Source: Eledone cirrhosa (taxonomy: Eukaryota). From it: 64,000 bases of DNA. The notes under the pieces were generated by a model. The model worked only from the letters and a program-made list of their open reading frames with translations. It had not been told where the DNA came from and did no database searches. Location of the stretch: contig OZ024740.1 in the NCBI GenBank assembly GCA_964016885.1, positions 335,730,001 to 335,794,000 of the forward strand, in the 5' to 3' direction. Numbering within the stretch: the first letter of the stretch is position 1; each line of letters begins with the position of its first letter. Shown here one piece after another: positions 7,275-58,090 of this stretch. The position numbers were made by a program, and so were the translations under genes.

Positions 7275-7309
7275 GTTTAAAATAGAGTGGAAAAGATGGG
7301 AAAGACCAC

Positions 7310-8292
7310 TTACCGTACTTTTCGTAGAGGAGGGATGGTTTTTCCATCCCTTTTCACTTGATCGTCTGGTGAAGGGACCGTTGAATCGTCCCTTCGGCTG
7401 GTCGTCGGCTCTTCTATGAGTATCTCCGAATATACTCTTCGGTTGATAGTTCCTCCTAGGTCTCTGAAATCACCAACTGCGTTGGGGAATTTCGTTTTAA
7501 TGTTTGTGTATTGTTTCTGTGCTATTTTTAGCAGTCTTATGTTCGTTGGCGTTTTGATTGGTGCTGGTATTATCCCAACGCCTTTTGTATTTGAGCCTCT
7601 GTGGCTCTTTCAACCCTACGGGATTTTGTACTTACTGTACGGTACGTGACCGTACAGTGCTGTTGGGTTTCGAAAAACGTTTCCGCTGCCTTGCAGATTG
7701 CTCGGTGTCCAGTTTTTGTCACCATCTTCTTCGCTTCCTCTAATTCCTCATTTGTTATGAGGATTGTTTGCAGGTTCTTCGCGATACCTGCAAACGAGAT
7801 TGGTTTTTCTTTGCTGCTGTTGTTGCTGTTGTTGTCGTCAGAGCTGCTGTTACTTTTGTTGTTGCTGCAGGTACTACGACTACTGCCGCCGCCGCTGTTG
7901 CTGTGGTTGTTGTTATTGTTGCTGCTGCTAATGCTGTTGTTGTTTATGCTGCTGCTGATGCTGTTGCGTCTGCTACTGTTGTTTTCATTGTCACTGTTGC
8001 TGTTGTTATTACGGCTGCTACTGCTATTATTCCTGACGTCAGACGAGTGAAATGGGTTTTCGTATTTCCCGCACACCTGTTTCGTCATTGTCGTCGTCGT
8101 CGTGGAGAAATCTTGCACGCTTTGCACGAGACTTTTCTTTTCTGTCGTCGCTTGCGAAAGAGAAGGGAGGGAGAGAGACACATTTAAAGAAGGGAGGGAG
8201 AGAGACAATCTTCTCTCTGCTGTAGTGACGATTGAGGAAGAAGAAGACGGAATGAGTGGGAGTGACCTATGAAAATTCTTTTTCGTAGCCAT
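7310..8292 (-). pseudogene. Internally deleted ORF1 of B1
   Basis: MATKKNFH..., Asn/Ser-rich tract and SFAGIAKN motif, matching the ORF1 at 44653-46746. Confidence 0.85.
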
Positions 8293-9069: not shown

Positions 9070-12000
9070 GATTTCATTTATTAGCCACAAGGGCCGACAT
9101 ATAGGGGACAATACAAAAGACTGGGGCAGTGGGGTTTTACAGAAAAATCGAGTAAACAATATGAATAACAATAACAAAGTAACAAGAAAAATACAAGAAA
9201 AATTCCCCAATAGGGGGGAATGACCACCTAGAGTTCGCTCAGGTATCCCACCAATCCAGAACGACCCGACGCTTCGAGAGCATCCTGGAAGGGCACCCCT
9301 CTCCTCCTCAAATTTACCCACCTACAGCCGCATAACCAGAGTAGGCCTACTCACAAAGGCCATTCTCGCTACATCCACCCACCTTTCAGCAAATGTACTG
9401 GGTGCAGCACTTCTCTCTCCACCCTCACCTTCCTTTCCAAGTGAAACTTGAAAAAGTTGATGAGAGATTGGCCGAAGAGAAAAGTGTCTGTCTTCAGTCC
9501 TTTCAACATCGTCCACCATACAACGTCTTTCGCTACTGCCACCAGACAGAGGAAATTGCCTGCCCTTCCTGGCCAAAAGAAGGCGGCGGGTCGATTTTCA
9601 CTATGGACTCGGCCGATAGCCAGATCCGTTCTACACGCGACAACAGCTGTTCGACATAACTCCACAAGTCAGTAATGCACGGACACTGGACGAGTGCGTG
9701 CAGAACGGTTTCGTCGCTCTGCGCGCATCTCGGACAGGTCCGTCTGTCAGCACTTCCGTGCCTGTTGAGTTTATCTCGAACCGGCAGTATCCCCCCCCCC
9801 GTTTGCACTGCCAAGCGAGGGATTTTTGGAAATGATCCATTGTCCCCGGCTCGAAAGTCCTCCAGAACAGACTGGTTAGTTCGACTTCGTCGACTCCCAG
9901 AGCCTCTCCGAGTGCGTCGTCGCACTTGCCCACCACTAATCCTCTATAGAACTCGAGAGTGGAAGTTCCACTGACCGCATTGCCTGATTGGTAGAGAGCA
10001 GTGAGTGCCTGGCAACATCCCAGATGCTAGTCACCCAGTCTCGGTCTCTTCTTGACCCAGGACTGCATCTCAGTAAAAGAAACGAGCTACGGAAAGGCCC
10101 GTCTGAGAAACGGCGACGGCACCTGTTCACCGTTTAGGCAGAATATCTGGAGATGCCGCAGTCTCAGCGCGTGTCTGCGCATCGTTATCCACGTCATGCT
10201 CAGCCCTCCACGTAGAGGGTGCTGGCAGCAGATGTACCGACTCACCAGCGGACCTGACCCCTCCACAAGAATTTGAAGGGGAGCCGCTCCAAGATGGTGA
10301 GGTTCAAACGGAGGCAAGGGATGACGGTCAGACGGTAGTAGATGACGGACGCGCTGTACGTGTTCTCCACCTCCGCCCGACCTTTCAGTGATAGCTTCCT
10401 TCCAGCCCATTTCTGGGTGAGACTGGCTATCCTGCCCGTCACCTCATCCCAATTCTTATCCACCTGGAGGTCTGGCCCGAACCAAACCCCGAGCAACTTT
10501 ACCGGTCCGCCCGTCCAGCGCCTAAAGACACTGTTGGACGGCATGGACTTGCCTCTCCAGGTGCCGAGTTGGAAGCCCACCGACTTTTCCGGGTTAAGTT
10601 TTGCTCCCGTCAACCTTTCCTATTCCTCCAATAAGTTACCGACCACCTCGATTTCTGAGGTGTCCAACACCATCACGGTGATGTCTTCCGCATAAGCCGA
10701 CACAGCTTTTCCGCTTCCCGGTTTGATCGGGATGCCCTGCAACAGCCCCAGCTTCCGCAGTAAAGGCTCGAGAGTCAATACATACAGAAGGGAGGAGAGA
10801 TGGCACCCTTGACGAACCGATCGGGAGACCTGAAACGGTTCCGAGAGGTGGCCATTAATTTTGACCACCCAGCAGGTGCCGCTGTGCATAGCAGCGATCC
10901 GGCTTCTGAAGACGGGGCCGAAGCCAGCCGCCTTGAGGACAGCCTCCATGTACCAATGGTCGACCCTATCGAATACTACGATTGATCTAAATTGGTCAGA
11001 GCCCCACCGAAGCCAGGTTTACACCCTGCCTTCTCTATGATGTATCTCATCAGGTGGAGGTTGCGTGTATGGACCTGGTTGGGATTGCGAAAGTTTGCGC
11101 CTCCCGAACCAAATCCCAGATCACAAACCTGTGATCTGAATAGGCGACCGTTTTAAAACGTGGACAGATTACACTATTTCTGTCTATTTTCCTAATGAAT
11201 ATCCTGTCTATATACGATCTAGATGACCCTATGCGGTTAGTCCAGGTACACACTGGCGCATTAGGGAAATCTAGTCGGTACCTGTCAGACAGTTGGAACT
11301 GGCTGGTCAGGTTCTTGAGGCTTTTGCACCCCCCGCTCCTATCGGATACTCCCACATCATCCGAGCGTGCGTCTAAGATGCCGTGCCAGCCCCCCTCCTA
11401 ACAGTAAAGGGCGAGACGTACCCAGAAAGGCTTCCAGGCGTCTAAAGAAGTCCGGCCGTCCTGCCCCACTAGGGGCAGGGACGGCCACCAGTGTACAGGT
11501 ACCACCTTCGTTATTGTTTCTTTTAGGAACCCCTTTAAAAATCTTGAAGTGGGTTTTACGTTCGGGGTTCCCACGTCCCGAGGAAAGCTGTCTCGTATCT
11601 CTTTGTATAAATCGAGCGACATTCGCACCAGAAACAAATCTTCCGGCACGCGAAATGTGCTTGATTTAAAAATTTCCCTCTCTTTTTGTATATTTTCACT
11701 TGGTGCTACGAGGGCCATCAGTTACTTGTTGGCCCTCCTGACGAGCACGAAGTTTTGTATGTTTTGTTGGTGGGATTTTATTTGTATGCGTGGCTGTGGT
11801 GGTGATGGTTTTGGTGGTGTTGTTTCGGTTGTGTCCGTGTTTGTTGTGAGTGCGGTGTCTGTGGTTTCAGATGTTTGTGTGTGTATTGGTTCTTGCGTCT
11901 GTTTAGGTTGTTTGCGTTTGGGGGATTCTGGTGCTGGTGATGGTGGTGTTGATGTTGGTGTTATTGGCGAGATGTTTGCGTGAGTGGTGTCTGCATTTTT

Positions 12001-13815: not shown

Positions 13816-13833
13816 AATAATAATAATAATAAT

Positions 13834-25744: not shown

Positions 25745-28700
25745 TTTCTTTATTAACCACAAGGGTTTACATAAAGTAGACATTAAGGACAGTGCAGGAC
25801 AATACAGGACGGTACAAATGGGCATTTCTGCGTGTAAAACAAAAACAGAGGATGTAACAAAAAATAACAATGAAAAATTCCCCAATAGGGGGGAGACTTC
25901 GGAGGGACATTTGTGGAGAAATCCCAGTAAAAGCCACAATGACCCTGACCACCAAGGCAAGTGCCCTCTCCCAGTTTTCCACCTTTAATTTACAGATATA
26001 TACACAGAGTAGGCCCATTCACTCGGGCCATTCTTGCTTCTCTCACCCATCTTTCAACAAAATGCTGGGAAGAGAGCACTTCCCTCTCTACTCTGATTTT
26101 CCTTTTCAAATGAAATTTGAAAAAGTCAATCAGGGCATCACCGAATAGGTAATTGCTCGTCTTCAGCCCTTTCAAACGTGTCCACCATACTATCTCTTTC
26201 GCCATGGCCACCAGACAGATAAAAACTGCCTGCCCTTCCCGGCTAAAGGAAGAGGGCGGGGCAATCCTCACGATGGACTCAGATGATAGCCGGATCCGTC
26301 CTACACGCGACAGCAGGTGTTCGACATAAACCCACAAGTCAGCAATTTTCGGACACTGGACGAGTGCGTGCAGGACGGTTTCGTCGCCCTGCGCGCATCT
26401 CGGACATGCCCGGCTGACGGCACCTTCATGCCTGTAGAGTTTATCCCGAACTAACAAGGCTACTCGGTAGCACTGCCAGGTCATAGATTTCTGGAAGTTG
26501 TCCATATGTCAAGGCCCGAAAGTTCATCCGAAGAGATTGGCTAGTTGATTTTCGTCGACGCCTAGAGTTTCCCCAAGTACGTCGTCGCTCTTCCCCTCCA
26601 CTAATCCTCTATAGAACGCCGAGGTGGCGTTTCCACCGATCACATTGCCCGATTGGTCGAAGGCTGTGAGCGCCTGAAGACATTCCAGTCTCCAGGCGCT
26701 CCCTCTCTGTCTTCGCTTGACCCAGGACTGCAGCTCCGTCAAGGAAACGAGCTGGGGAAATACGTGTCTAGCAAACGGCGACCACACCTGATCACCGTCG
26801 AGGAAGAGGTGGATATGTCGCAGCCTGAGCGCGTGTCTGCGCATCATCAGCCACAGCATGCCCAGCCCTCCACGTAGCGGGTGTTGACAGCAGATGGACC
26901 GCCTGACCATCGGAGCGCGTCCCTTCCACAAAAAGCGAAAGAGCAAACGCTCCAGCGCAGTCGGGCGGGGCTTAGGTCAAGGTACGACGGTCAGGCGGTA
27001 GTAGATGACGGACGCGATGTACGCGTTAGCCACCTCCGCTCGACCTTTCAGGGATAGCTTCCTCTCAGCCCATTTCTTGGTGAGAGAAGCCAACCTGCTC
27101 GTCACCTCGTCCCAATTTTTGTCCGTCTGGAGGTCCGGACCGAACCAGACCCCTAGCAATTTAACCGGTCCGTCCGTCCAGCGTCCGACGACGCTGTTGG
27201 ACGGCATGGACCTGCCTCTCCAGGTGCCGAGCTGCAGGCCCACTGACTTTTCCTGGTTGATCATTGCTCCTGTCACCGCTTCGTATTCTCTTAGTGTAGT
27301 TCGCTAACCTGGTCTCTGTAGGCCTTGCGCTCTGGTAAGGATGCGTTTAGCTTCCAGTAGCCGGGTCCTCGTCTATGAAGCCTATCTAAGTCAAGCACAC
27401 AGATCAGGAATTTGTGGTCCGTGTAGCTGACTATCTTGAATTGTGGACAGCCTATGCTAGACCTATCTATTTCCCTACAAAATACTCTATCTAGATATGA
27501 CCTGGATGACCCTATGCGATTTGTCCAAGTCCACATTGGCACATTCGGGAAATCCAATCGGTACCTGTCAGACAGTTCAAAACGTCTGAGCAGGTTGGTG
27601 AGGCTCTTGCACCCTCCTCCCCTATCCGCTGATCGCACACAGTCTCAGCCTGCATCTAAGATCCCGTTCCAGTCGCCCACTAACACTAAAGAGCGGGACA
27701 TTCCTCGAAAGGTCTCCAGACGCCGGAAGAAATCAGGCCGCCCTGCTCCTGTCGGGGCATAGACGGCCACTAGCCTGAAAGCTTGCCCGTCTCCGCTGGT
27801 CACGTCCAGCACCACCAACTTACCTTCTGGGTCCATGAAAATGGCCCGTATGGCGAGATTCAAACCTCTCCGAAAAAGCACAGCAACTGCTCCCCCCCAC
27901 CCCCGATTCCGGACGGCTGGGAGATGCGTACACATCGTAGCCGCCGAGGATCGGTGCGAAGGCCCGTGCTTCGGAGATTCTGGTCTCGCTGATGGCCACT
28001 ACATCTATGTTTAGTGACCTGAGGTCGTTGAGCAGGTGGCCCTGCTTCCATGACGACCCCAAGCCACGCGCATTTATGCTGCCTATTCTGAGTGAGGTCA
28101 TGTTTAAAATGGAGTGGAAAAGATGAGAAAGACCACTTACCTTATTTCTCGTAGATGAAGGACGGTTTTTCCATCCTTTTCACTGCTTGTGGCCTCCTCA
28201 GGAAGGATATCCTTATAAATCCTCCTGGAGAGTGCTTGTCGGAAGTCTCCGATGTCTTTGGGAATTTTTTTGTTTTAGTGTCATGTACGTTTTCTGTGTG
28301 ATGCGAGTGATTTGTATTTGTGGAGGTGGTGTGAACTTTTGGGTTGTTGTGTAGTCTGTTTCTGTGATGCTGGTGTTGTGTTGGATGTAGTGTAATAATT
28401 GGTTGTTGTTCAAATTTAATGGTGTGTAGTGTGTATCGTTTTGGTTGTTTTGTTTTGTTTGTGTTTGTTGGGGGTTTGTTTGTTTCGCTTTTAGGTGACT
28501 TTTGTGGTGTTGGTGATGGTGGTGTTGGGGTTAATGATGGTGATGGTGTTGGTGTTTGGTGTGATGGGGTTGGTGATGCTGGTGTGGATGGTGGCATATC
28601 TGTTCTAACTTTTTTGTTTGATTGTTTATTTGTTTCCCTCTGTATTTTGTTTTTGGAGGGGGAAGGAAGAGAATTTTTTCTTTTTTGGCTTCTTTTTTTC

Positions 28701-31085: not shown

Positions 31086-31087
31086 GT

Positions 31088-31137: not shown

Positions 31138-31142
31138 ATAAT

Positions 31143-35137: not shown

Positions 35138-35168
<31 letters not shown>

Positions 35169-38200: not shown

Positions 38201-40855
38201 CACCCCCGCTCCTATCGGATACTCCCACACAGTCCCAGCGTGCGTCTAAGATGCCGTTCCAGTCCCCCGCTAACAGTAAAAGGCGAGACGTACCCAGAAA
38301 GGCTTCCAGGCGTTTAAAGAAGTCCATCCGACCTGCCCCAATAGGGCCGTAGACGGCCACCAGTCTAAAGGAACCACCTTCGTTCACGTCCAGGACCACC
38401 AACTTCCCGTCCGGGTCCCGGAAGATCGACCTTACTTCGAGATCCAGGCCTTTCCTAAACAACACTGCCACCCCACCTCCCATTCCCGGCCGACTAACAC
38501 ATGTAAAGATCTGATAGTCGCCGAAAATGGGGGCTAGTGCGCGCGTGTCGGAAATCCTGGTCTGGCTGACGGCAATTACATCCATTTCTAGAGACCTGAG
38601 GTCGTTGAGCAGGTGACCATGCTTCCAGGACGATGCCAGGCCTCGAACATTTAAGCTTCCTACTCTTAATACGGCCATGTTGGCAGGTAAAAAGAGAGAG
38701 AGGAAAGGTTTACTTACCTTCCGGACTCTTGTGAAGGTCGGGTGGTTCGACCTCCATAGTTGGTGGGGTTTCTTTTGGGAACCCCTTTGAAAGTCTTGAA
38801 GTGGGTTTTACGTTCGCGGTTCCCACGTCCCGAGAAAAGCTGTCTCGTATCTCTTTGAATAAATCGAGCGACATTCGCACCAGAAACAAATCTTCCGGCA
38901 CGCGAAATGTGCTTGATTTAAAAATTTCCCTCTCTTTTTGTATATTTTCACTTCGTGCTATGAGGGCCATCAGCTCATTGTTGGCCCTCCTGACGAGCAC
39001 GAAGTTTTGTATGTTTCGGATTTTATTTGTTTGCGTGGCTGTGGTGGTGATGGTTTTGGTGGTGTTGTTTCGGTTGTGTCTGTGGTTGTTGTGAGTGCGG
39101 TGTCTGTGGTTTCAGATGTTTGTGTGTGTATTGGTTCTTGCGTCTGTTTAGGTTGTTTGCATTTGGAGGATTCTGGTGATGGTGATGGTGGTGTTGATGT
39201 TGGTGTTATTGGCGAGATGTTTCCGTGGGTAGTGTCTGCATTTTTTATTGTGGCTGATTTTGTGCTTTGTTGAGGTTTCTTTTCATTTTTGTGTTTCCTT
39301 TTTTGTATTTTGGGGCATTTTGGTTTTCCCTCATCTTCACTACTGGTAGATGAGGGGTCTGTGTCTGTAAGTGTGTGTGTGTGTGTTTACGTTTTTATTG
39401 ATGTGTGTCTTTTGGGGAGGAGGATGAATTTGATAACTTTCCTCGTTTCCCCCCTGGGTGGTCAATGTTGGTTGTGGTCTTTCTATTGGTGTTGTTGTTG
39501 GTGGTTTTGCCGGTGCTGGTGTTGGTTCTGGTCCTCGCCACGGCGTCGGCAACAGTGGTGTCCTTCGACCCCTTGCACCTTTCAGCAGTTGAGGGCAGAA
39601 GGCTCGCAAATGGGTTTTTTCCCACAAACAAAACAATGCGGGTTTTGCCCTCGACCATAATATGAATGACCGTCCCATTCTAAAGGCGGATGTGGTCCGG
39701 GATTGTCTTCACATTCTCTGGAGAAGTATCTCCAGGTCAACCCCGGATCAGTCCTCTCTGGTCGTTTTTGTCACTTCTATCGGGACGGTATCCGTCCGTT
39801 CAACAATCACACATCCCAGAAACCACCACATGTCAAGTCCTGGTGGGATTCTGGAAATGCGGAGACGTACCGTTCTTTTCCTATGTGGGAGGGGTGCATA
39901 ATGACCTTGCTGGTTTTGCAAGGAGTCATAGCGTGTTTCATAGCGAGGGCTTCTGACTTGAACAGCACCGAAATGGTGCCGTACTGTCTGCCCCTCGCTA
40001 TGTATTCGGTGTCTTCTCTGATGCACCTCAGCGCGACTTCGACATCTGCTTGTGGAATTAAAGCTGTCCTTTTGGTTTGTGCTGAGATGCATCTATAATG
40101 CACCGTTCTGCGCTCCACTGCCTCAATAGCTTCTACCGGGACTGTTAAGTTGGCCCATGTTTGCTCTTGCTTGATGAGCTTCCATGCCTGGGCCAACTTT
40201 TCATCTTTGCTTGAGAGGTCCATGCTTTGCTGCTGCCGCAGGGAAAGTGTTCTTGTTGTCGTTGGGGGTGTTGTTGTTGTTGTTCTTGTTCTTGTTGGTG
40301 TTGTTGTTATCACTGTCGCTGTTATCATTGTTGTCTTTGGTGCCGCCGTTGTTCTCAGTGCAGTTGGTATTGTTGCTGTTGGTGTTGTTGCTATTCGTTT
40401 TCATGTTAGTGGTGTTGATATTGATGTTGCATTTGTCATTATTTCTCTCATCTGTATTTTCGTTGTCGCTGTTACTGTCATTTTTTTCCAAATTAGAGTT
40501 CTCAGTGTTGTTATCATTGCTGTCTTTGTTCACATTGTTTGTGGTGGTGTTTGTTGTATCAATTTCTGTTAATTTCGCCGTAACGCTCTTCTCAACCTTT
40601 ACATCGTTGTCGCACGATAGCAGACATATCGCTGAGGGGCGTGACTCAGCCATGTTTTTTTGTTGTTTTTTTTTGGATAATTTTTTTAAAATGTAAAAGA
40701 GTTCAAATAATATGGCCCAAATATTATTCTTTGCCCTTCACAGGGCAAAGTCCAAGGGCCTGTATGCCTTACACAACAACAAAATATTCAATAAATAAGT
40801 TTTGACAGGCAGATAAATAAACTTACGAGAGCGAGCAAAAAGACGTCCGTTCAGA

Positions 40856-40858: not shown

Positions 40859-40913
<55 letters not shown>

Positions 40914-41198
40914 TAATGATAATAATAATAATAATGATTTCTTTATTAACCACAAGGGTTTACATAAAGTAGACATTAAGGACAGTGCAGGACAATGCAG
41001 GACGGTACAAATGGGCATTTCTGCGTGTAAAAAAACAAAAACAGAGGATGTAACAAAAATAACAATGAAAATAACAATGAAAAAATTCCCCAATAGGGGG
41101 GAGACTTCGGAGGGACATTTGTGGAGAAAGCCCAGTAAAAAGCCACAATGACCCTGACCACCAAGGCAAGTGCCCTCTCCCAGTTTTCCACCTTTAGT

Positions 41199-44100
41199 TT
41201 ACAGATATATACTCAGAGTCGGCCCATTCACTCGGGCCATTCTTGCTTCTCTCACCCATCTTTCAACAAAATGCTGGGAAGAGAGCACTTCCTTCTCTAC
41301 TCTGATTTTCCTTTTCAAATGAAATTTGAAAAAGTCAATCAGAGCATCACCGAAGAGGTAATTGCTCGTCTTCAGCCCTTTCAAACGTGTCCACCATACT
41401 ATCTCTTTCGCCATGGCCACCAGACAGATAAAAACTGCCTGCCCTTCCCGGCTAAAGGAGGAGGGCGGGGCAATCCTCACGATAGACTCAGATGATAGCT
41501 GGATCCGTCCTAAACGCGACAGCAGGTGTTCGACATAAACCCACAAGTCAGCAATTTTCGGACACTGGACGAGTGCGTGCAGGACGGTTTCGTCGCCCTG
41601 CGCGCATCTCGGACATGCCCGGCTGACGGCACCTCCATGCCTGTAGAGTTTATCCCGAACTGGCAAGGCTCCTCGGTAGCACTGCCAGGCCAGAGATTTC
41701 TGGAAGTTGTCCATAGGCCCTGGCCCGAAAGTTCTTCCGAAGAGATTGGCTAGTTGATTTTCGTCGACGCCTAGAGTTTCCCCAAGTACGTCGTCGCTCT
41801 TCCCCTCCACTAATCCTCTATAGAACGCCGAGGTGGAGTTTCCACCGATCACATTGCCCGATTGGTCGAGGGCTGTGAGCGCCTGAAGACATTCCAGTCT
41901 CCAGGCGCTCCCTCTCGGTCTTCGCTTGACCCAGGACTGCAGCTCCGTCAAGGAAACGAGCTGGGGAAAAACGCGTCTAGCAAACGGCGACCACACCTGA
42001 TCACCGTCGAGGAAGAGGTGGAGATGTCGTAGCCTGAGCGTGTGCCTGCGCATCATCAGCCACGGCATGCCCAGCCCTCCACGTAGCGGGTGTTGACAAC
42101 AGATGGACCGCCTGACCATCGGAGCACGTCCCTTCCACAAAAAGCGAAAGAGCAAACGCTCCAGCGCAGTCAGGCGAGGCTTAGGACAAGGTACGACGGT
42201 TAGGCGGTAGCAGATGACAGACGCGATGTACGCGTTAGCCACCTCCGCTCGACCTTTCAGGGATAGCTTCCTCTCCGCCCATTTCTGGGTGAGAGAAGCC
42301 ACCCTGCTCGTCACCTCGTCCCAGTTTTTGTCCGTCTGGAGGTCCGGACCGAACCAGACCCCTAGCAATTTAACCGGTCCGTCCGTCCAGCGCCCGACGA
42401 CGCTGTTGGACGGCATGGACCTGCCTCTCCAGGTGCCGAGCTGCAGGCCCACTGACTTTTCCTGGTTGATCATTGCTCCTGTCACCGCTTCGTATTCTCT
42501 TAGTGTAGTGCCGATCGCCTCGATGTGTTTGGCGTTCGACACCACTACGGTGACATCGTCCGCATATGCTGACACGGATCTTCCGCATCCTAGTTCGCGC
42601 GGGACTCCCCTCAACGTCTCCAGTTTGTGCAGTAATGGCTCGAGAGTCAATACGTACAAGAGGGACGAGAGGGGACATCCTTGGCGGACCGAGCGCATGA
42701 TGTTGAACGGTTCCGACAGGTGACCGTTCACTCTCACCACAGAGCAGATGTCGCTGTGCATGGCAGCGATCCAGCCTCTGAAGACGGGCCCAAAGCCAGC
42801 CGCCCTCAGGACTGCCGCTAGGTAACGATGGTCGACCCTATCGAAAGCTTTCGACTGATCTAAATTGATCAAGGACCCACCCGTGCCAGGTTCCCTAGCT
42901 ACCCTCTCTACGATGTATCGCATGAGGTGGAGGTTGTCGTGGATGGATCTGTCGGGAATGGCGCATGTCTGCGCCTCTCCCACCAGACCACCAACGACAA
43001 GCGCCAACCTCTTTGCTAGCACCTTGGCCAAAATCTTAAACTCTGTGTTTAGCAGAGTTATGGGCTGGAAATTGTCTATGTTATCCCCCTTGTTCGGATC
43101 CTTTCTCAGCAGTGCCACCGCTCCTCGGCTCACAGAACTGGGAATTCTCCCGTTCTGTTGCCAGTTGCAGTAGACGTCCGCCAAGAGGCCTCCGAACAAG
43201 TCTGGCATCTGTACGTAAAGTTCATAGGGCAGACCATCCAAACCAGGCGATTTACCCCTTGTGCAGCCAGTCATTGCCTCCCGTACTTCAGCGGCTGTTA
43301 TCGGCTTTTCGCAACACGTCGCCTCAGTGGCCGAGAGCCGCGGCAGTCCGTCGAGGTAGACACTAAAGTCCATCCCTCTACCCGGCCCCCCGCTGCCCCC
43401 GAACAGCTGAGCGAAGTGTCGCTGAAAAGCTTCACACATTTGCCCGGGATCGAGTAGCATGCGCCCGTCGTGGTCCACCAAAGACCGGATCGTGGCTTTG
43501 TTGCCACGACGCGCCTCCGCCACTCGGGCCCATTGAACGGCTTTCGTCCCCTCGTGTCTGAGAGCACGCACCCTAGCTCTGACAACGCAGCCTTCGTGCT
43601 TTGCATTGAAGAATTGGTCAAGGGCCAATTTCGCCGCAAGCACGTCGGTCGCAATGCCTTTGCTAAGCGCCTCGTCTAATTTTCTAACTAGTTCTCCCTC
43701 TGCTCTATTTTTCTCTATTGCTAAAGCCTTACTAAACCTAATCGATTCTATTCTAATCGCTCTTTTCAGAGCAAACCACCACTTGTTGTTGACGATGGCC
43801 CCCGTCAACGCCCGCTTAACTAGTTCGCTCATCCGGTCTCTGTAGGCCTTGCGCGCTGGTAAGGACGCGTTTAGCTTCCAGTAGCCGGGTCCTCGTCTAT
43901 GAAGCCTATCTAAGTCAAGCACACAGGTCACGAATTTGTGGTCCGTGTAGCTGACTATCTTGAATTGTGGACAGCCTATGCTAGACCTATCTATTTCCCT
44001 ACAAAATACTCTATCTAGATATGATCTGGATGACCCTATGCGGTTTGTCCAAGTCCACATTGGCACATTCGGGAAATCCAATCGGTACCTGTCAGACAGT

Positions 44101-44618
44101 TCAAAACGCCTGAGCAGGTTGGTGAGGCTCTTGCACCCTCCACCCCTATCCGCTAATCCCACACAGTCCCAGCGTGCATCTAAGATCCCGTTCCAGTCGC
44201 CCACTAACACTAAAGAGCGGGACGTTCCAAGAAAGGTCTCCAGACGCCGGAAGAAATCAGGCCGCCCTGCTCCTGTCGGGGCATAGACGGCCACTAGCCT
44301 GAAAGCTTGCCCGTCTCCGCTGGTCACGTCCAGCACCACCAGCTTACCCTCTGGGTCCAGGAAGATGGCCCGTATGGCGAGATCCAAACCTCTCCGAAAA
44401 AGCACAGCAACTCCTCCACCCGATCCAGGACGGCTGGGAGATGCGTACACATCGTAGCCGCCGAAGATCGGTGCGAAGGCCCGTGCTTCGGAGATTCTGG
44501 TCTCGCTGATGGCCACTACATCTATGTTTAGTGACCTGAGGTCGTTGAGCAGGTGACCCTGCTTCCATGACGACCCCAAGCCACGCGCATTTATGCTGCC
44601 TATTCTGAGTGAGGTCAT
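41199..44618 (-). CDS. ORF2: APE endonuclease, reverse transcriptase and C-terminal CCHC zinc finger (1139 aa)
   Basis: GSINARG, ISETR, VYAP, GDWNG, SYLDRVF, YTDH; KSPGLDG, KAFD, VRQGCPLS, AYADD; CPRC..ETVLHALVQC. NFQPI and CPLSSL deviate from the usual RPI and PLSP, so activity is uncertain. Confidence 0.96.
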   Translation of the reverse strand: MTSLRIGSINARGLGSSWKQGHLLNDLRSLNIDVVAISETRISEARAFAPIFGGYDVYASPSRPGSGGGVAVLFRRGLDLAIRAIFLDPEGKLVVLDVTSGDGQAFRLVAVYAPTGAGRPDFFRRLETFLGTSRSLVLVGDWNGILDARWDCVGLADRGGGCKSLTNLLRRFELSDRYRLDFPNVPMWTWTNRIGSSRSYLDRVFCREIDRSSIGCPQFKIVSYTDHKFVTCVLDLDRLHRRGPGYWKLNASLPARKAYRDRMSELVKRALTGAIVNNKWWFALKRAIRIESIRFSKALAIEKNRAEGELVRKLDEALSKGIATDVLAAKLALDQFFNAKHEGCVVRARVRALRHEGTKAVQWARVAEARRGNKATIRSLVDHDGRMLLDPGQMCEAFQRHFAQLFGGSGGPGRGMDFSVYLDGLPRLSATEATCCEKPITAAEVREAMTGCTRGKSPGLDGLPYELYVQMPDLFGGLLADVYCNWQQNGRIPSSVSRGAVALLRKDPNKGDNIDNFQPITLLNTEFKILAKVLAKRLALVVGGLVGEAQTCAIPDRSIHDNLHLMRYIVERVAREPGTGGSLINLDQSKAFDRVDHRYLAAVLRAAGFGPVFRGWIAAMHSDICSVVRVNGHLSEPFNIMRSVRQGCPLSSLLYVLTLEPLLHKLETLRGVPRELGCGRSVSAYADDVTVVVSNAKHIEAIGTTLREYEAVTGAMINQEKSVGLQLGTWRGRSMPSNSVVGRWTDGPVKLLGVWFGPDLQTDKNWDEVTSRVASLTQKWAERKLSLKGRAEVANAYIASVICYRLTVVPCPKPRLTALERLLFRFLWKGRAPMVRRSICCQHPLRGGLGMPWLMMRRHTLRLRHLHLFLDGDQVWSPFARRVFPQLVSLTELQSWVKRRPRGSAWRLECLQALTALDQSGNVIGGNSTSAFYRGLVEGKSDDVLGETLGVDENQLANLFGRTFGPGPMDNFQKSLAWQCYRGALPVRDKLYRHGGAVSRACPRCAQGDETVLHALVQCPKIADLWVYVEHLLSRLGRIQLSSESIVRIAPPSSFSREGQAVFICLVAMAKEIVWWTRLKGLKTSNYLFGDALIDFFKFHLKRKIRVEKEVLSSQHFVERWVREARMARVNGPTLSIYL

Positions 44619-44652
44619 GTTTAAATAGAGTGGAAAAGATGGGAAAGACCAC

Positions 44653-46746
44653 TTACCGTACTTTTGGTAGAGGAGGGATGGTTTTTACATCCCTTTTCAC
44701 TTGATCGTCTGGTGAAGGGACCGTTGAATCGTCCCTTCGGCTGGTCGTCGGCTCTTCTAAGAGAATGTCTGAATATACTCTTCGATTGATGGTTCCTCCT
44801 AGGTCCCTGAAATCACCAACTGCGTTGGGGAATTTCGTTTTAATGTTTGTGTATTGTTTCTGTGCTATTTTTAGCAGTCTTATGTTAGTTGGCGTTTTGA
44901 TTGGTGCTGGTATTATGTAGTCCTGTTGTGAAATGTCTGTGTGTTCAATTATGTAAGTCATTAGTTTCTTGTTGTGTGTGTTTATTGCCGTGCATTTGTT
45001 TTTCTGGGGGTGGGGTGTGGTTCTGCTATTTTCTTGTCGTTGTTGCTGGGTGTGTGTGTTTTGTTGTTGTGTTTGCGATGTTGGTGCTTGTGGTGGTGGT
45101 GTTGAAGGTGTTGTTGGCGGTGGGGTTGTCGCCGGTGGTGATGGTGGTGCTGGTGTGGGTGGTGATGGTGTTGGTGGTGTTGCTGCTGTGGGTCTCTTTG
45201 CAGTAGACTTTACCCTTTTCTCATTTCTTTCCTCCCTTTTCAAAGGCGACGATGCGCTGCTTCTGCGTTTGTGCCTTCTTGCGACCTTTTGCCATCCCTC
45301 TCCCACCTCACACTCCATGTCTGATTCTGTAAGGTCGGGGAGGGGTACCAGCTCCACTCTTTCACTTGTTGTTGTTGGTGATGTTTGCACTGGAGTCTCT
45401 GTTGCAGCTGCATTTGGTATTGCTGTTGTTGTTGTTAATATTTCCACTGCTGCTGCTGTCTTTGATTTCCGTGGAGTGGGTATGGGTGCCACGGACCTAT
45501 CGTTCCTGGTTGCCGCTTGTCCTGTTGCTGGTAGCCGTGGAGCCGGATTCGGAAGGAGGGGGGTTTTCTCCTTTCTCAGGGTCTTCTCGTTGCAGAAGGC
45601 CCTGAGGTGAGTCTTCGATCCACAGCGAAAGCATTTCGGGCGTTTGCCCTCAACACTTATGGGCAGTTGAGTGCCGTTATCGAAGTCTATCACATCCGGG
45701 ATAGCTTCGATGCACTCCTGGTTGGTTTGGATTAGCATCTCAATGGAGGAGCCGACCCAATCTTCTCTTACTTTTTTCTGTACTTGCAGTACAGTTGTTT
45801 TGTCCTCGATTCCGACGAGGACAGACGCGGCCAGCCAAGAAGGGGTCATTCCGGGGGGGACGTGGGTCAGTTTGACCCTCACAATTTTTTGCCCGCAGTA
45901 GGAGGGCACCAACACCATTTCCTCGCTCCTTAGGGTCACTACTGATTGGGCCTTTGCCTCCTGGGGTGTGGCAAAAAGTACGTCTACGGTGGCGTATTTT
46001 TTGCCTCGGGTGATGTGCGTTTTCCTCTGCCACACAGACCCCAAGGCTTTTTGTATTTGGGCCTCTGTGGCTCTTTCCACCCTACGGGATTTTGTACTTA
46101 CTGTACGGTACGTGACCGTACAGTGCTCTTGGGTTTCGAAAAAATTTTTCGCTGCCTTGCAGATTGCTCGGTGTCCGTTCTTTGTCACCATCTTCTTCGC
46201 TTCCTCTAATTCCTCATTTGTTATGAGGATTGTTTCCAAGTTTTTCGCAATACCTGCAAATGAGATTGGTTTTTCTCTGCTGTTGTTGTTGTCGTCAGAG
46301 CTGCTGGTACTTTTGTTGCTGCAGGTACTACGACTACTGCCTCCGCCGCTGTTGCTGTGGTTGTTGTTGGTGTTGCTGCTGCTAATGCTGTTGTTGTTTA
46401 TGCTGCTGGTGATGCTGTTGCGGCTGCTACTGTTGTTTTCATTGTCACTGTTGCTGTTGTTATTACGGCTGCTACTGCTATTATTCCTGACGTCAGACGA
46501 ATGAACTGGGTTTTCGTATTTCCCGCACACCTGTTTCGTCGCTGTCGTCGTCATCGTGGAGAAACCTTGCACGCTTTGCACGAGACTTTTCTTTTCTTTC
46601 GTCGCTTGCGAAAGAGAAGGGAGGGAGAGAGACACATTTAAAGAAGGGAGGGAGAGAGACAATCTTCTCTCTGCTGTAGTGATGATTGAGGAAGAAGAAG
46701 ACGGAATGAGTGGGAGTGACGTATGAAATTTCTTTTTGGTAGCCAT
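44653..46746 (-). CDS. ORF1: nucleic-acid-binding protein (~697 aa) with Asn/Ser-rich N-terminus, RRM-like middle, one CCHC knuckle and a Pro/Thr-rich linker
   Basis: Open frame, first ATG at 46746; RPKCFRCGSKTHLRAFC; homologues in families B3, C and D. The RRM assignment is inference. Confidence 0.9.
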   Translation of the reverse strand: MATKKKFHTSLPLIPSSSSSIITTAERRLSLSLPSLNVSLSLPSLSQATKEKKSLVQSVQGFSTMTTTATKQVCGKYENPVHSSDVRNNSSSSRNNNSNSDNENNSSSRNSITSSINNNSISSSNTNNNHSNSGGGSSRSTCSNKSTSSSDDNNNSREKPISFAGIAKNLETILITNEELEEAKKMVTKNGHRAICKAAKNFFETQEHCTVTYRTVSTKSRRVERATEAQIQKALGSVWQRKTHITRGKKYATVDVLFATPQEAKAQSVVTLRSEEMVLVPSYCGQKIVRVKLTHVPPGMTPSWLAASVLVGIEDKTTVLQVQKKVREDWVGSSIEMLIQTNQECIEAIPDVIDFDNGTQLPISVEGKRPKCFRCGSKTHLRAFCNEKTLRKEKTPLLPNPAPRLPATGQAATRNDRSVAPIPTPRKSKTAAAVEILTTTTAIPNAAATETPVQTSPTTTSERVELVPLPDLTESDMECEVGEGWQKVARRHKRRSSASSPLKREERNEKRVKSTAKRPTAATPPTPSPPTPAPPSPPATTPPPTTPSTPPPQAPTSQTQQQNTHTQQQRQENSRTTPHPQKNKCTAINTHNKKLMTYIIEHTDISQQDYIIPAPIKTPTNIRLLKIAQKQYTNIKTKFPNAVGDFRDLGGTINRRVYSDILLEEPTTSRRDDSTVPSPDDQVKRDVKTIPPLPKVR

Positions 46747-47159
46747 GTTTTTTTGTTTAAAATGAAATTTTGGGTACAAAACCCCAATAACTGGTTATTT
46801 AACCCCGAAGGGCCAAATAACGGACAGAAAGACCCCTCTCACGAGGAGGAGGGTGTCTTTATCAACAATTTGGTTCAAGTTTTAAACAATTTACAATTGT
46901 TTTAACGGTTAAAAATTACTATACCTTACAGAGCCGAGCCTCCGTCAACCATGGCATTCAATAATAATAATAATAATAATAATAAAATATAGTAATAATA
47001 AGACGCACGAGGTGACGGAGGTCATGAAATCGCTCCCGTAAGTTTTGAATTTTTAACATATTTAAATCATTTGTGAAATAACAACTCTTAGTACAAATGC
47101 TACGTAAAGCACCCGGCTTGAGCCCCAAAAAAATTCGGACCCAAAATATATTGTTATAA

Positions 47160-47805: not shown

Positions 47806-48373
47806 GGTCGCATCACCGCCACCACTGCCTCGGTATCGACATCACCACCACCACTGTCTCAGTATCGCCAACGCCGCCAGTCTCTGCTGGCTACCACTTC
47901 CACATTATAGAATTCCTACTACTAACAAAGAGGAAGGCATCAAAATATATAGATAGACTCAAAAGAAAAAAGAAAAAACAAACAAAAGCAGCACAGCAAC
48001 AACAGTAAAAAACCAGAAAAACAGAGAAAAACAAAAACAAAAAAAGAAACCCCAAAAACGTAAAGAAAATAAGAATGAAGAGAGAAGCAGGCGGACGGAC
48101 AGAGAAGAGGGGGGAAAAAGTAAAACTTAAAAAACAAAAACTAAGTCAGACATTCGAATACTACATTACAATGAAACTTATGCTTATTCATTTTTGGGGC
48201 GCTTTCTGCCCGTGTGTTTGTTTGTTTATGTGTGTCCGTATACAGCGTGGTGATAATGCCACACAAGGGCTAAGTGGGATGGCGGATCCACAGATGGCTA
48301 TGTAAACATACATTCGCCAATCCTCGATAAGAGTGTTTAAATATCGAACATAAACAGTTCGAATAACGGTGAA

Positions 48374-51766: not shown

Positions 51767-51882
51767 GGCTGCAGGTAGTGGCTTGATATTCAATCCAACG
51801 GACTTTCCAGTTAACCAACATCAATGACTGAGATTCAAGGAATAACAATAACAGTAATAATAATAATAATAATAATAATAAT

Positions 51883-52144: not shown

Positions 52145-55100
52145 GATTTCTTTATTGGCCACAAGGGCTGACATCAAGAAAAACATCACAGACGGAACAG
52201 GTCGGTACGATGTGGGTTTTGTGCGTGTAAATATTTTTATTATTTATATAAGAAAAGAAAAAAGACATAAAACATATATATATAAACAATAAAATGAAAA
52301 TTGAAACAATGAAAAATTCCCCAATAGGGGGGAATCCTCCGAGGGTTACTCGTTGCGAAAACCACACAAAAGACCACGGCCACCCTGACTACCAGGGCAA
52401 GCACCCTCTCTTAATTTTTCCATCTCTCAAACTACAGACGTATATTCAGAGTGGTCCCGTTCACTCAGACCATTCTCGCTACATTCACCCACCTTTCAAC
52501 AAACTTGCTAGAAAGTAGCACTTGCCTCTCCACCCTGATTTTCCTCTTCAAGTGAAACTTGAAAAAGTTAATTAGGGATTCGCTGAAGAGGAAAGTGTTT
52601 GTCTTTAATCCTTTTAACCTTGTCCACCACACAATCTCTTTCGTCATGGCCACCAGGCAGATGAAAACCGCCTGCCCTTCCTACTCAAAGGAAGACGGCG
52701 AGACCATCTGCACAATGGACTCAGTCGACAACCGGATCAGTCCCACACGTGACAGCAACTGTTCGACATAGGTCCACAAGTCAGCAATGCTCGGGCACTG
52801 AACGAGTGCGTGCACAACGGTTTTGTCGCTATGCGCGCTTTTCAGACAGGCTCGGCTGACGGCACTTCCGTGCCTGTAGAGCTTATCTCGAACCGGCAGC
52901 GCTCCCCGGTAGCACTGACAGGCCAGGGATTTTTGGAAGTTATCTATAGGCTCAGGGCTGAAAGTTCTCCGGAAGAGAGCAAACAGCTGATCTTCTTCGA
53001 CGCCCAGGATCTCTCCGAGAATGTCGTCGCTCTTCCCCTCCACTAGTCCTCTATAGAACGCCGAGGTGGATGTTCCACCGATACTGGTGCCCAACTGGGA
53101 GAGGGCAGTGAGCGCCTGGAGACATTCCAGTTTCCAAGCGCTATCCCTCGGTCTTTTTCTGACCCAGGACTGCAGCTCCGTCAAGGAGACGAGCTGTGGG
53201 AAAATGTGCCTGGCGAACAGCGACCACACCCGTTCACCATCAAGGAAGCACCAGAGCTGTCGCAGCCTCAGCGCATGTTTGCACATCATCAGCCATGGCA
53301 TGCCCAGTCCTCCACGCAACGGGTGTTGACAGCAGATGGATCGTCTGACCATGGGAGCGCGTCCCTTCCACAAAAAGCGGAAGAGGAGGCGCTCTATTTT
53401 GGTGAGAGTTGGGCTGGAGCAAGGGACGACGGTGAGACGGTAGCAGATGACAGATGCGATGTACGCATTCGCCACTTCCGCCCGGCCTTTCAGGGACAGC
53501 TTCCTCTCAGCCCATTTCTGGGTGAGGGAGGCCACCCTGCTCGTCACCTTGTTCCAGTTTTTCTCCATCTGGAGGTCCGGTCCGAACCAGACCCCGAGCA
53601 ATTTAATCGGTCCGTCCGTCCAACGCCCCACGACGCTGTCGGACGGCATGGACTTGCCTCTCCAGGTGCCTACCTGCAAGCCCACCGACTTTTCCTGGTT
53701 TATCTTTGCTCCTGTCACCGCTTCGTATTCCTTGAAAGCGGTGCCGAGCATCTGGACGTGTCTGGTTCCCGACACCACCACGGTGACGTCGTCAGCGTAA
53801 GCCGACTCGGATTTCCCGCATCCTAGTTCGCGTGGGACGCCCCTCATCGCCCCCAGTTTGTGCAGTAACGGCTCGAGAGCCAATATGTACACGAGGGACG
53901 AGAGGGGACAACCCTGGCGGACTGAGCGCATGATGCTGAAAGGCTGCGACAGGTGACCGTTCACCCTCACAACTGAGCAGATGTAGCTGTACGTTCCTGC
54001 GATCCAACGCCTGAAAACGGGCCCGAAACCGGCTGCCTCGAGGACCGCCGCCAGGTAACGATGGTCGTCCCTATCGAATGATTTGGATTGATCCAAGTTG
54101 ATCAGGGCCCTACCCTTGCCAGGTTCCTTAACCACCCTCTCTATGATGTATCGCATGAGGTGGAGGTTGTCGTGTATGGATCTGTCCGGAATGGCGCATG
54201 TCTGTGCCTCTCCCACCAGACCCTTGACGACAAGCGCCAACCTCGTTGCTAACACCTTGGCCAAAAACTTGAACTCTGCGTTTAGCAGGGTTATGAGCCT
54301 GAAATTATCAATAACATCCCCCTTGTTCGGGTCTTTTCTCAGCAGCGCCACTTCTCCCCGGCTCACAAAACTGGGAATGCTCCCGTTCTGCTGCCAGTTG
54401 CAGTAGACGTCTGCCAAGAGGTCACCGAACAAGTCTGGCATAAATGCATAAAGACCATCTAAACCTGGCGATGTTCCTCTTGTGCAGTTAGCCATCGCTT
54501 CCCGTATTTCACCGGCTGTTATTGGCTTTTCGCAACACGGTGCTGCTGTCGTCGAGAGCCGAGGCAGTCCGTCGAGGTATGCACTGAAATCCATGCCCCG
54601 ATCCGTGTCGCCGCCGCTCCCGAACAGTTCAGCAAAGTGCTGCTGAAAAGCTTCACACATCCGCTCGGGTTCGAACATCACGCACCCGTTTTGGTCAGAC
54701 AAAGACCGAATTGTGGCTTTATTGCCGTCGCGCCTCTGCCTTTTGTCCCCTCGTGTTTCAGAGCACGCGCTCTAGCTCTGACAACGCAGCCTTCGTGTTT
54801 TGCGTTGAAGAATTGGTCGAGTGCCAATCTCGCCGCAAGCACGTCGGTTGCGATGCCTGTCCTAAACGCCTCTTCTAGCTTTCTGACTAGCTCTCCCTCT
54901 ACTCTATTTTCCTCTATCACTACTCCTTTGCTAAACCTAATCGACTCTACTTTAATTGCCCTTTTCAGGACGAACCACCACCTGTTGTTGACGACCGCTC
55001 CCGTAAACGCCCGCTTAACTAATACGCTAATCCGGTCTCTGTAGGCCTTGCGCGCCGGGAAAGACGCGTTCAGCTTCCAGTAACCAGGCCCTTGTCTATG

Positions 55101-58090
55101 AAGTCTGTCTATGTCGATCTTACAGATCACAAATTTGTGGTCCGTGTAGTCGACTATTTTAAATTGTGGACAACTTATACTAGCCTTATCTAGTTCCCTG
55201 CAGAATACCCTATCTAGATACGATCTGGATGACCCGATGCGGTTTGTCCATGTCCACATTGGCACATTCGGGTGATCCAGTCGATACCTGTCAGACAGTT
55301 CAAAACGTCTGAGCAGGTTGATGAGGCTCTTGCACCCTCCTCCCCTATCCACTAGCCCCACACGATCCCAGCGTGCATCCAAGATACCGTTCCCGTCGCC
55401 CACTAACACTAAAGAGCGGGACGTTCCAAGAAAGGTCTCTAGACGTCTGAAGAAATCTGTCCGTCCTGCCCCTGTTGGGGCGTAGACGGCTACTAGCCTG
55501 AAAGCATTGCCTTCGCTGCCGGTCACGTCCAGCACCACCGACTTACCTTCTGAGTCCAGGAAGATAGTCCGTATCGCGAGATCCAAGCCTCTCCGAAAAA
55601 GGACGGCAACCCCTCCCCCCTATCCTGGACGGCTGGGAGATGCGTATTCATCGTAGCCGCCGAAGATCGGTGCGAAGGCCCGTGCCTCGGAGATTCTGGT
55701 TTCACTGATTGCCACCACATCTATGTTTAGTGACCTGAGGTCATTGAGCAGGTGACCCTGCTTCCAAGATGACCCCAGGCCACGTGCATTTATACTGCCT
55801 ACTCTGAGTACAGCCATGTTGGATGAGAAACGGGGCAAATGAGAAAGGGTCACTTACCTTGTTCGTGTGGTGAAGGGACAGTAGAACCGTCCCTTTCGCT
55901 GGTCATGGGTGTTTCCAAGAGGATGTCAGTGTATATCCTCTTGGTAACCGTCCCTCTGAAGTCTCCAACTGCGTTGGGGAATTTTTGTTTTAAAGGTTTG
56001 TATTGTTCTATTGAGATTTCGATGATGCTTAAGTTTGTCGGGAGAGTTCTTGGTGTTGGTGGGGTGTAGTAGTTTTTTTCCGTGATGTCTGTGTGCTGCT
56101 TTATATATTTTATGAGTTCTTTTTTTGCTATGTTTATGGCTGTGTACTATTTGTGGGGAGGGGTGATTTTGTTGCCGTTTTCTTCTTGTTGCTGTTTGGT
56201 GTGTGTGTCTTGTTGTGTTTGCGTTGTTGGTGTTTGTGGTGGTGTTGCTGCAAGTTTCCTTGCTGCCTTTACCCCTCTTTGTATGCCTTCGCTTTTGGAG
56301 GGTGAATCTAAGGGTTTTTTTGTTTTTTGTTTTTTGTGGCAGACTGTTTGCCACGTCACTCCCGCCTCAAACTCCATGTCGGAATCTGTGGCGTCTGGGA
56401 GGGGTATGTGCTCCACGGCTGTTGGTGGTGGTAGTGGAGCCCTCTTCGGCGATTTTGTTGCTGGTGGAGCTATTTCAAATGGAGCTATTGGTGTTGCCGC
56501 TACTGATGATGCTGCTTTAGTTATCCGTGACCTTGGTACGGGTGCTACGGACGTTGCCCTCCTACTCACCGTGGAAGGGGCTTCTTCGTGTGTTGCCTGT
56601 CCTGCTCTTGGTAGCAGCGGACCAGGTATTGGAAGGAGAGGGGCCTTCTTCGGTGTCTTCTGTGGGCAAAAGGCCCTGAGGTGACCTTTCGACCCACAGA
56701 GATAACATTTTGGCCGTCTTCCTTCTACATTTATAGGGAGTTGGAGTCCTTCCTCAATGTCTATGATATCGGGGATAGCCTCGATACATTCCTGGTCAGT
56801 TTGTATAAGCATTTGCATGCCTATACCTGACCAGTTTTCTCTCCCTATTTTTTCTACTTGCAGCATGGTCGCCCTGTTCTCAATTCCAGCAAGGACAGAC
56901 GTGGCCAGCCAAGGTATGGGCACGTCGGGTGGGACCTGGGTCACTTTGATCCTCACAATTTTCTGCCCGCAGTAGGAGGGCACCAAGACTAACTCCTCAC
57001 TCTTTAGGGTTTCCAAAGAGTGAGACTTTGCTTCCTGGGGGGTGGAGAAAAGTACGTCTACTGTGGCGTACTTTCTGTCTCGGGTGATGTGGGTTTTGCG
57101 TGCCCAGACGCACCCCAAGGCCTTTTGGATTTGAGCCTCCGTGGCTCTCTCCACTCGATGTGAGATTTTGCTTACGGTGCGGTAAGTCACCGTCCGTAGC
57201 TGCTGGTCCTTGAAAAAATCGGGTGGAGGTTTCAGGGAAACTCTATTTGCACTTCTTGTCACCATGGCCCTTGCGACTGCCATCTCCTCCTCTGTGACTA
57301 ACACTGTCTCGATATTTCGGGCGACACCTGCAAAAGAAGTGGTCCCTTTTTCAGCAGCACACTATTGCTGCCGCTACTGGTCTTACTGGTGGTGCTGAGG
57401 TCGCTATTACAGGTATCGGTGTCATTGTTGTTCTTTTCGCTGGTACAGTTGTTGGTGTTGTTTTCGTTGATACTGTTGCTGCTGTTACTGTTATTGTGGC
57501 TGTTGTTATTATTGTTGTTTTTGCTGATACTGTTCCTACTATTATTGTTGTTGTGGCTGTTGCTATTGTCATTGTTATTGTTGTTCTCGACCTTACCGTT
57601 GTTATTTTTCTGATTGTCGTTTTCGACCTTACCGCTGTTAATTTTGTTATTGTCGTTCTCGACTTTACCGCTGTTATTTTTGGTGATGTTGTTGATGTTA
57701 TTGTTGGTGTTGTTTGTGTTAGAAATATTTGGTAATTTTAAATCTGTAACAATCTTTTTTTCGTTTGTAATATTTTCGTTTATATTTACCTCCGCTGGAA
57801 CGCTATCTTGTTGACATGCTGATAAAGTCTCCTTCTCTCTGTGTTGTCTGACAGCGCTCTCTCTCTTTGTGTTATCCATCTTGAAATTTTTCAAAAAAAA
57901 ATATTTTTACACAAATACGAAAACGACACCCCGTAAAAGGGTGCCGTATTATTTACTAGTGAACCCCTGTATTAGGTGGGTCACTTCTAAACTTTTATCA
58001 AATTTAAAACTTGAATAAAAGGTTTCGAACGGTTGAAAAAGAGGTAAAACGTTGAAAAAGACTGGAGGCGATAAGAAGCGTGGCTTCACC
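52145..58090 (-). mobile_element. Tx1-clade LINE, family D; full extent with a few frameshifts
   Basis: ORF1 ~57879-55850 (Asn-rich, GRRPKCYLCGSKGHLRAFC); ORF2 55817-52432 in pieces 55620-55853, 54678-55586, 52681-54702 and 52465-52653 (YADD); (AAT)n on both flanks. Confidence 0.93.

Follow-up and report, generated by a model that had tools for sequence, protein, structure and literature searches.

A conserved splice-donor motif on the ORF1 stop of octopod Tx1-type LINEs, and a predicted 3′ UTR helix that would mask it

Introduction

How does a long interspersed nuclear element (LINE) come to make more of one of its proteins than of the other? The excess of ORF1p over ORF2p, the products of two open reading frames (ORFs), and frequent ORF1 swapping are open questions for LINEs, usually answered by translation and recombination. 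A locus of Eledone cirrhosa raises the possibility of an answer at the level of RNA. The stretch analyzed here, called the window, comprises 64,000 nt of a 3.0-Gb genome (GenBank assembly GCA_964016885.1, contig OZ024740.1, positions 335,730,001–335,794,000) and holds a nest of minus-strand LINE copies with an ORF1 and an ORF2 for endonuclease, reverse transcriptase (RT) and zinc finger. An earlier interpretation of these letters (the sequence-only reading) had proposed that ORF2 is a retained intron, running from a conserved donor at the ORF1 stop to a conserved acceptor in the 3′ untranslated region (UTR). Here we report that the donor is conserved beyond the window, and that a helix spanning ORF2 is predicted to cover it.

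ORF2 of these elements has an apurinic/apyrimidinic (AP)-type endonuclease, an RT and a C-terminal zinc finger, and its nearest solved relative is human L1 ORF2p (E 6e-52). Upstream lies an ORF1 with a nucleic-acid-binding motif; the elements also have a poly(A) signal, a simple-repeat tail and no long terminal repeat (LTR), as in the L1/Tx1 clade. We take them to be Tx1-type, a provisional label based on structure and on microsatellite ends (presumably the target repeat). ORF1 of copy B2 has no Pfam match, and a protein search with its residues 250–696 returned none. Families B, C and D were named from the window and E to H from 1.06 Mb of sampled genome, with 20 further loci added for H; genome-wide copy and junction counts come from sequence-pattern searches. 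Coordinates are collected in Table 1.

Table 1. Features of the Tx1-type copies in the window
Feature	Position	Strand	Remarks
Copy B2	40878..46959	-	Full-length Tx1-type LINE between (ATT)n runs
B2 ORF1	44653..46746	-	697 aa; one CX2CX4HX4C knuckle
B2 ORF2	41199..44618	-	1,139 aa; AP-type endonuclease, reverse transcriptase, zf-RVT; TAA stop in B
B2 donor motif	44651..44657	-	G/GTAAGT holding the ORF1 stop TAA; would-be intron start 44656
B1 donor motif	7308..7314	-
B3 donor motif	28135..28141	-
C2 donor motif	38712..38718	-	Phase 1, stop at +6
D donor motif	55852..55858	-	Phase 1, stop at +6
B2 pyrimidine spacer	44619..44650	-	AG-free, ahead of the ORF2 ATG; inner part of the 5′ helix arm
B2 5′ duplex arm	44629..44688	-	ORF1 end, donor, spacer; predicted 48 bp, –60.7 kcal/mol
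B2 3′ duplex arm	41133..41192	-	Purine tract, anti-donor ACTTGCC (41165–41171), anti-ORF1-end
U-rich AG-free tract	41021..41100	-	Ends in the B-lineage acceptor candidate CAG (41021–41023)
B would-be exon 2	40942..41020	-	19 added codons, up to AATAAA (40942–40947)
D ORF2 stop TAG	52432..52434	-	Weak alternative acceptor candidate (rank 32/131); closing end of the predicted helix
C1 ORF2 stop TAG	9322..9324	-	CTGTAG/GT context
YAG at ORF2 +415	44204..44206	-	In 7/7 families; most pyrimidine-rich of 31 shared YAG; not beyond background
Chimeric joint	44692..44709	-	Joint between 44700 and 44699; D2-type ORF1 to the D2 donor, then B3-type sequence
Chimeric joint, second occurrence	7349-7366
CAG in B3-type ORF1	28183..28185	-	43 nt before the B3 donor; matches the far side of the chimeric joint

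Results

A splice-donor motif conserved on the ORF1 stop

The sequence-only reading placed GGTAAGT at five ORF1/ORF2 junctions in the window, and it is present at all five. Two further proposals about these junctions held in all 18 listed copies. The ORF1 stop lies just inside the would-be intron, at +2 to +4 (phase 2; B, E, F and G) or +6 to +8 (phase 1; C, D and H), and an AG-free spacer of 77–86% pyrimidine precedes the ORF2 ATG, or GTG in one copy. Spacer length varies from 28 to 46 nt across families, with no common frame. Within B, the spacer has 38- and 39-nt variants (window 44619–44625), the short form being found in 8 of 30 copies with identical ORF1.

Conservation extends to all seven Tx1-type families, which are 60–88% alike in early ORF2 and carry G/GTRRGT on the ORF1 stop (the slash marks the would-be exon–intron boundary). 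The junction reads G/GTAAGT in B, C, D, E and G, G/GTAGGT in F and G/GTGAGT in H, each version containing a stop. Nucleotides –1G, +1G, +2T, +5G and +6T are invariant and +3/+4 vary between A and G only, a change that keeps U1 pairing by wobble. In ORF2, by comparison, 67 of 265 synonymous third positions do not vary over the seven families. Against this background, the 5′ splice-site motif is conserved beyond chance and beyond the window. The variation stays within what U1 can pair with, as it would at a U1 site. Scored for U1 match against the 222–323 GT sites of its copy, the donor comes first or joint first in 7 of 10 copies; the exceptions are F (one better site), B2 of the window (two tie or match) and H (six equal or better).

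That the motif has no function, or that the pyrimidine tract is where an ORF2-only RNA begins under an internal promoter, seems very improbable. The families do share descent, and coding chance has also put a perfect GGTAAGT inside the endonuclease, yet the donor is conserved above background and the pairing described below is matched by family. As for a promoter, the tract occurs without the donor G's in only two B copies, both reading as a local tract repeat, so ORF2-only copies do not pile up there; an internal TCT-type promoter is not supported.

Among more distant relatives, 18 of 20 loci were examined, two of these lacking upstream DNA. The donor is absent before ORF2 in four fish-like Tx1 relatives with upstream DNA, in termite-gut loci and in other distant loci, which rules it out as a general Tx1 trait. 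Because ORF2 of the fish-like relatives still follows a pyrimidine leader, with no GTRAG donor ahead of it, the donor looks specific to the present lineage, on a small sample. The leader of these four (L165, L166, L170 and L171) is long and preceded by GGTG or AGGTG, not by a U1-type donor. Matching Leu/Ser/Phe-rich leaders occur in the distant proteins P0079, P0125, P0146 and P0117.

A predicted helix across ORF2

The first ∼85 nt of the 3′ UTR are predicted to pair with the element's own ORF1 end, donor and spacer, in a helix of 44–58 bp and –52 to –77 kcal/mol (helix figures are energy predictions on isolated arms). The spacer pairs with the purine tract after the ORF2 stop at –19 to –36 kcal/mol; in every one of 10 copies, this is better than its pairing with 250 or more of 267 ORF2 windows. 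When co-folded, the arms continue to pair past the spacer, over the donor and ORF1 end; the first F copy co-folded gave no confident pairs, but a second one did. Six or seven of the nine donor bases are paired in the predicted helix, and in 7 of 10 copies (C, D, D2, E4, F, G and H) it closes with the ORF2 AUG opposite the ORF2 stop. In H, 17 of 18 two-armed copies reach –70 kcal/mol or lower, the remaining copy having a deleted arm. The sequence-only reading, right about the donor, had missed this main structural element, a family-matched duplex that would mask the donor in full-length RNA.

Partners are matched by family. Only 6 of 5,040 permutations match spacer and purine tract as well as the real family labels, only 2 of 5,040 do so for the ORF1 end and donor against UTR nt 19–85, and with whole arms the family match ranks 1 of 5,040, though these figures overstate independence, the families being related. 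The bases facing the donor differ by family and its middle is unpaired in C, E, E4 and H, so the helix does not explain the constancy of the donor. A search of four copies for DNA inverted repeats did not place the arms among the five longest pairs in any, which is to be expected of G-U-rich RNA pairing. One fish-like copy with both ends had no specific end pairing. The purine tract, also considered as a splicing enhancer, is better explained as a helix arm. Elsewhere in the 3′ UTR, a small hairpin (window 41088–41101 and homologues) shows a compensating change, from CCCC/GGGG in B, C, D, G and H to CCTC/GAGG in E and F.

A helix over the ORF1 stop, spacer and ORF2 AUG could instead control translation, by lowering re-initiation or by returning ribosomes that reach the ORF2 stop to the ORF2 start; the look of a donor would then be a by-product of Arg/Gly codons, the stop codon and pairing. 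The closing of the helix on AUG and stop in most copies fits such a role, as does the leader of the four fish-like relatives, which has no GTRAG. Yet the motif survives a change of ORF1 phase, the use of all three stop codons and different pairing partners, keeping the U1-compatible bases throughout. We consider translation control as the sole explanation quite unlikely.

A proposed donor-masking switch

We tentatively favor, at chances a little short of even, a switch formed by the donor and the masking helix: some transcripts would have ORF2 spliced out, giving an ORF1-only mRNA, and the rest would stay full-length. The donor would be free only while the 3.4 kb of ORF2 is being transcribed. 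With U1 holding the donor, splicing would run to an acceptor near the ORF2 end, putatively the stop TAG in E4, F, H and probably G, and the downstream CAG in B, which lost the TAG. With the helix winning, the RNA would remain unspliced and available for copying. The helix is predicted to loop out ORF2, bringing the ORF2 AUG and stop side by side in most families, and to pair most donor bases; it may also damp re-initiation at ORF2.

That a near-perfect donor and the strand covering it are both kept suggests that the donor brings a benefit before the cover exists, during ORF2 transcription. ORF1 is whole with or without splicing, and in most families an acceptor of fair quality lies near the ORF2 end, so the likeliest gain would be an ORF1-only mRNA, as in copia and EVD (PMC5580714). 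Of the original retained-intron proposal, the donor has held, while the acceptor turns out to be family-specific and no spliced retrocopy was found; splicing is still the single likeliest use of the donor.

Acceptor candidates

The B lineage has a strong acceptor candidate. As the sequence-only reading stated, CAG is kept in all six B 3′ ends (as YGCAG); by upstream pyrimidine content it ranks second of 126 YAG sites, with an 82-nt AG-free zone. The would-be B2 intron (44656–41021) measures 3,636 nt, and the spliced ORF1 would gain the predicted 19 residues, ending in KVRNAHLYRPALSCTVLNVYFM before the stop. In other families, the ORF2 stop itself is a candidate, being TAG in 13 of 15 3′-end types, often as CTGTAG/GT, and ranking 2/102 in F, 3/111 in H and 5/114 in E4. 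B has TAA there, and the downstream CAG instead; of older B-like copies, two have both TAG and CAG and one has neither.

Several features of the 3′ ends weigh against the switch, together with the relatedness of the families noted above and the outer pairing, which in the window D copy is no better than shuffles (114/200) and in B3 is weak (17/200). The sequence-only reading expected a conserved acceptor in the 3′ UTR, but a YAG stands at the homologous position only in the B lineage: D has CAC, as had been recognized, C and E have no AG there, and F, G and H have no AG anywhere in the distal U-rich 3′ UTR. No acceptor is common to all families, and no homologous 3′ splice site is conserved. 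Across the distal U-rich 3′ UTRs of 14 types, AG occurs 18 times and GA 27 times, against a shuffled expectation of 46; with both below expectation, the shortage is not clearly specific to AG. The exon-2 frame of B is broken by indels in 6 of 52 copies examined. The stop TAG, initially a strong candidate for a conserved acceptor, did not rise above background: its constancy is ordinary for two-fold sites, it ranks low in E (10/106), D2 (20/109) and D (32/131), and the helix itself accounts for the TAG/GT context. A stop matched to the donor phase follows the TAG joint in C, D, H, E and F but not in E4 and G, and 4 of 35 label shuffles do as well (not significant). We rejected these phase-matched stops as support: two of seven families fail, and the T before the purine tract gives a stop in three of four cases.

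An intron could also be short, running from the donor to an early AG in ORF2 (+14 or +415); splicing would then either create an ORF1–ORF2 fusion or take away the ORF2 start. The YAG at +415 is shared by all seven families and is the most pyrimidine-rich such site, but shared YAG number 31 in all, and an unchanged third base is also seen in 26 of 74 invariant Leu codons. The AG at +14 is not among the shared YAG, and because the donor phase differs by family, only some families would obtain an in-frame product. We give this alternative the least credence of those considered.

Search for spliced retrocopies

The sequence-only reading proposed a search for copies precisely lacking ORF2, and none was found genome-wide. 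The exact B splice junction has no match. An unbiased pattern search returned 14 B exon-2 starts without the T tract, to set against 7,760 with it (unspliced); none of the 14 is joined at the donor, their nature being internal deletions (mostly with 1–3 nt microhomologies), 5′ truncations, inversions and local duplications. The upper bound for spliced B retrocopies is near 0.04%. Donors of B with another continuation were never spliced among the matches listed (at least 18), nor in a second search (0/3); candidates from E (0/3) and D (0/1) were likewise unspliced, family sizes not being counted. Contigs compared with B2 also gave no 41020–44657 joint among the 15 of 324 joints listed from four data sets, nor among the 15 of 32 listed from a further set, in which one contig continues uninterrupted across the donor (44592–46002); we do not count these comparisons as evidence. 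A spliced RNA would expose its joint after only ∼80 nt of reverse transcription. These absences add to the points against the switch. L1 proteins favor their own RNA, a cis preference (PMC5860796) that can account for missing retrocopies, which makes the absence only moderate evidence against abundant splicing and not decisive.

A short interspersed element (SINE)-like repeat of ∼210 nt (window 8850–9064, 13613–13828 and 15186–15387) resembles the Tx1 tail in its last 25 nt (CCTTGTG...AGAAAC, then ATT repeats). Such a repeat may be mobilized in trans by these LINEs, and its tail hints that tail-bearing RNAs are copied in trans, which tells against cis preference as the reason for the missing retrocopies. 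At three loci (L032, L043 and L044), non-splice deletions have brought the last 80 nt of the 3′ UTR directly behind ORF1 or early ORF2, leaving ORF1-only shells in two cases.

A constant donor without a constant acceptor or spliced retrocopies is what U1 binding with little or no splicing would leave. U1 would sit on the donor during transcription and shield the growing transcript against premature cleavage or termination, for example at poly(A) hexamers; the helix would then displace it, allowing the RNA to end and be exported. The missing acceptor and retrocopies fit this alternative better than a splicing switch, and in 8 of 9 copies AATAAA or ATTAAA lies within 600 nt upstream of the ORF2 start, in the A-rich ORF1. 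In HIV-1, a downstream donor suppresses an upstream poly(A) site. In EVD, U1 blocks premature termination (PMC5580714). Against this, ORF2 of B2, B3, E, F and H has no poly(A) hexamer, leaving little downstream to protect, and the ORF1 hexamers are about as frequent as expected for an A-rich strand. Nor does it explain why the ORF1 end always falls within 8 nt of the donor, why B has a strong acceptor or how the chimeric joint described below arose. The sequence-only reading had itself named U1 binding as an alternative; we rate it unlikely, yet it remains a close rival. Escape from HUSH-type silencing of intronless RNA was rejected, as that protection is reported to need no 5′ splice site (PMC8770142).

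A chimeric subfamily

A trace of the proposed splicing may survive in a chimera. ORF1 of B1, B2 and B4 matches a D2 copy at 45 of 45 nt, a stretch that ends precisely at the D2 donor. Past the joint, it follows B3 (87%), starting directly after a CAG 43 nt before the B3 donor. The chimera is out of homologous register, with the homologous last stretch of ORF1 present twice. Its pattern has 2,389 matches genome-wide, and the first 100 are all of this joint type. The joint is a possible splice fossil, of the kind that splicing of the D2 donor to the B3 AG would leave. Five near-identical B2 copies stand head to tail at G000:C2:119773000-119803000 with a period of ∼6.05 kb, and similar spacings occur among genome-wide matches. 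Such arrays make read-through into the next element plausible. A template switch at the shared AG would also account for the chimera; it is a single event with a 2-nt AG microhomology, and the B3 acceptor site has a poor pyrimidine tract, both of which speak against splicing.

In its boldest form, which we think unlikely, the proposal is that a LINE clade runs a splicing switch in which ORF2 is the intron, from the ORF1 stop to an acceptor particular to each family, a co-evolving antisense 3′ UTR outcompetes U1 and so preserves full-length RNA, and a donor unmasked in head-to-tail arrays splices into the next element, creating the dominant 2,389-copy subfamily. If so, splicing would govern the ORF1:ORF2 ratio and also be the force behind the exchange of ORF1 between families.

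Relation to known systems

The L1/Tx1 clade includes non-LTR elements with target preference, such as Tx1, Keno, Kibi and Koshi (PMC4494074), and L1-Tx1 is listed among recently active elements in Octopus vulgaris (PMC13282606). The octopod family studied here is very active, with thousands of near-identical copies. Like those four, its members have two ORFs, an AP endonuclease, an RT and a zinc finger, and they may likewise insert at microsatellites; their ends are (ATT)n and (TATC)n, unlike the (TC)n or (TTC)n reported for the others. In the literature surveyed, mostly open-access, we found no description of a donor at the ORF1 stop or of an ORF2-enclosing helix for Tx1-type LINEs. Even without splicing, we found no account in that literature of a LINE duplex that spans 3.4 kb with ORF2 exactly between its arms.

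The closest parallel lies in Drosophila copia and Arabidopsis EVD, where the donor stands at the end of the structural ORF and is more constant than the acceptor, as holds for Arabidopsis Copia elements (PMC5580714). The ∼3 kb copia intron over the enzyme region is comparable to ORF2 here, and in copia/EVD U1 has both splicing and anti-termination roles (PMC5580714). Unlike the present LINEs, copia and EVD are LTR elements in which Gag and Pol share one frame and spliced RNAs are proven; in our families ORF1 ends at a stop of its own, splicing is a proposal, and the 3′ UTR is predicted to mask the donor. Non-LTR elements with two separate ORFs are not members of the copia type, but they may work like the copia system if splicing occurs. 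That would be a copia-like, RNA-level answer to the ORF1p:ORF2p question and a route to ORF1 swapping by splicing.

LINE RNA can contain functional splice sites, and spliced RNAs can leave retrocopies, as with SpIREs and SpORF2 of human L1 (PMC5860796, PMC2896524). There, however, donors lie in the 5′ UTR and the products keep ORF2 and are described as harmful to the element; none of these products lacks ORF2 from the ORF1 stop onward. In Lyosin, an L1 ORF1 exon is spliced onto foreign downstream sequence (bioRxiv 10.1101/2024.04.25.591049), but such fusions are single domesticated host loci and not a feature of active families.

Ends and neighboring elements

(ATT)n lies ahead of 5 of 6 5′ junctions inspected. 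Most B, C and D 3′ ends run into (ATT)n and most E, F and G-like ends into (TATC)n, repeats that may be tail or target; (TTC)n follows one B copy. A protein search with ORF2 residues 1–240 returned one gene model, from Octopus sinensis. This tectonic-3-like model (P0001) has ∼60 residues of Tx1 endonuclease near its start, through exonization or a modelling error. The plus strand of the window carries single-ORF RT elements with a restriction-like C-terminal motif (449–4380, 30900–35150 and 47841–51850), in the orientation opposite to the Tx1 copies; they are presumably R4/Dong-like. They occupy the same (TAA)n runs as the Tx1 copies.

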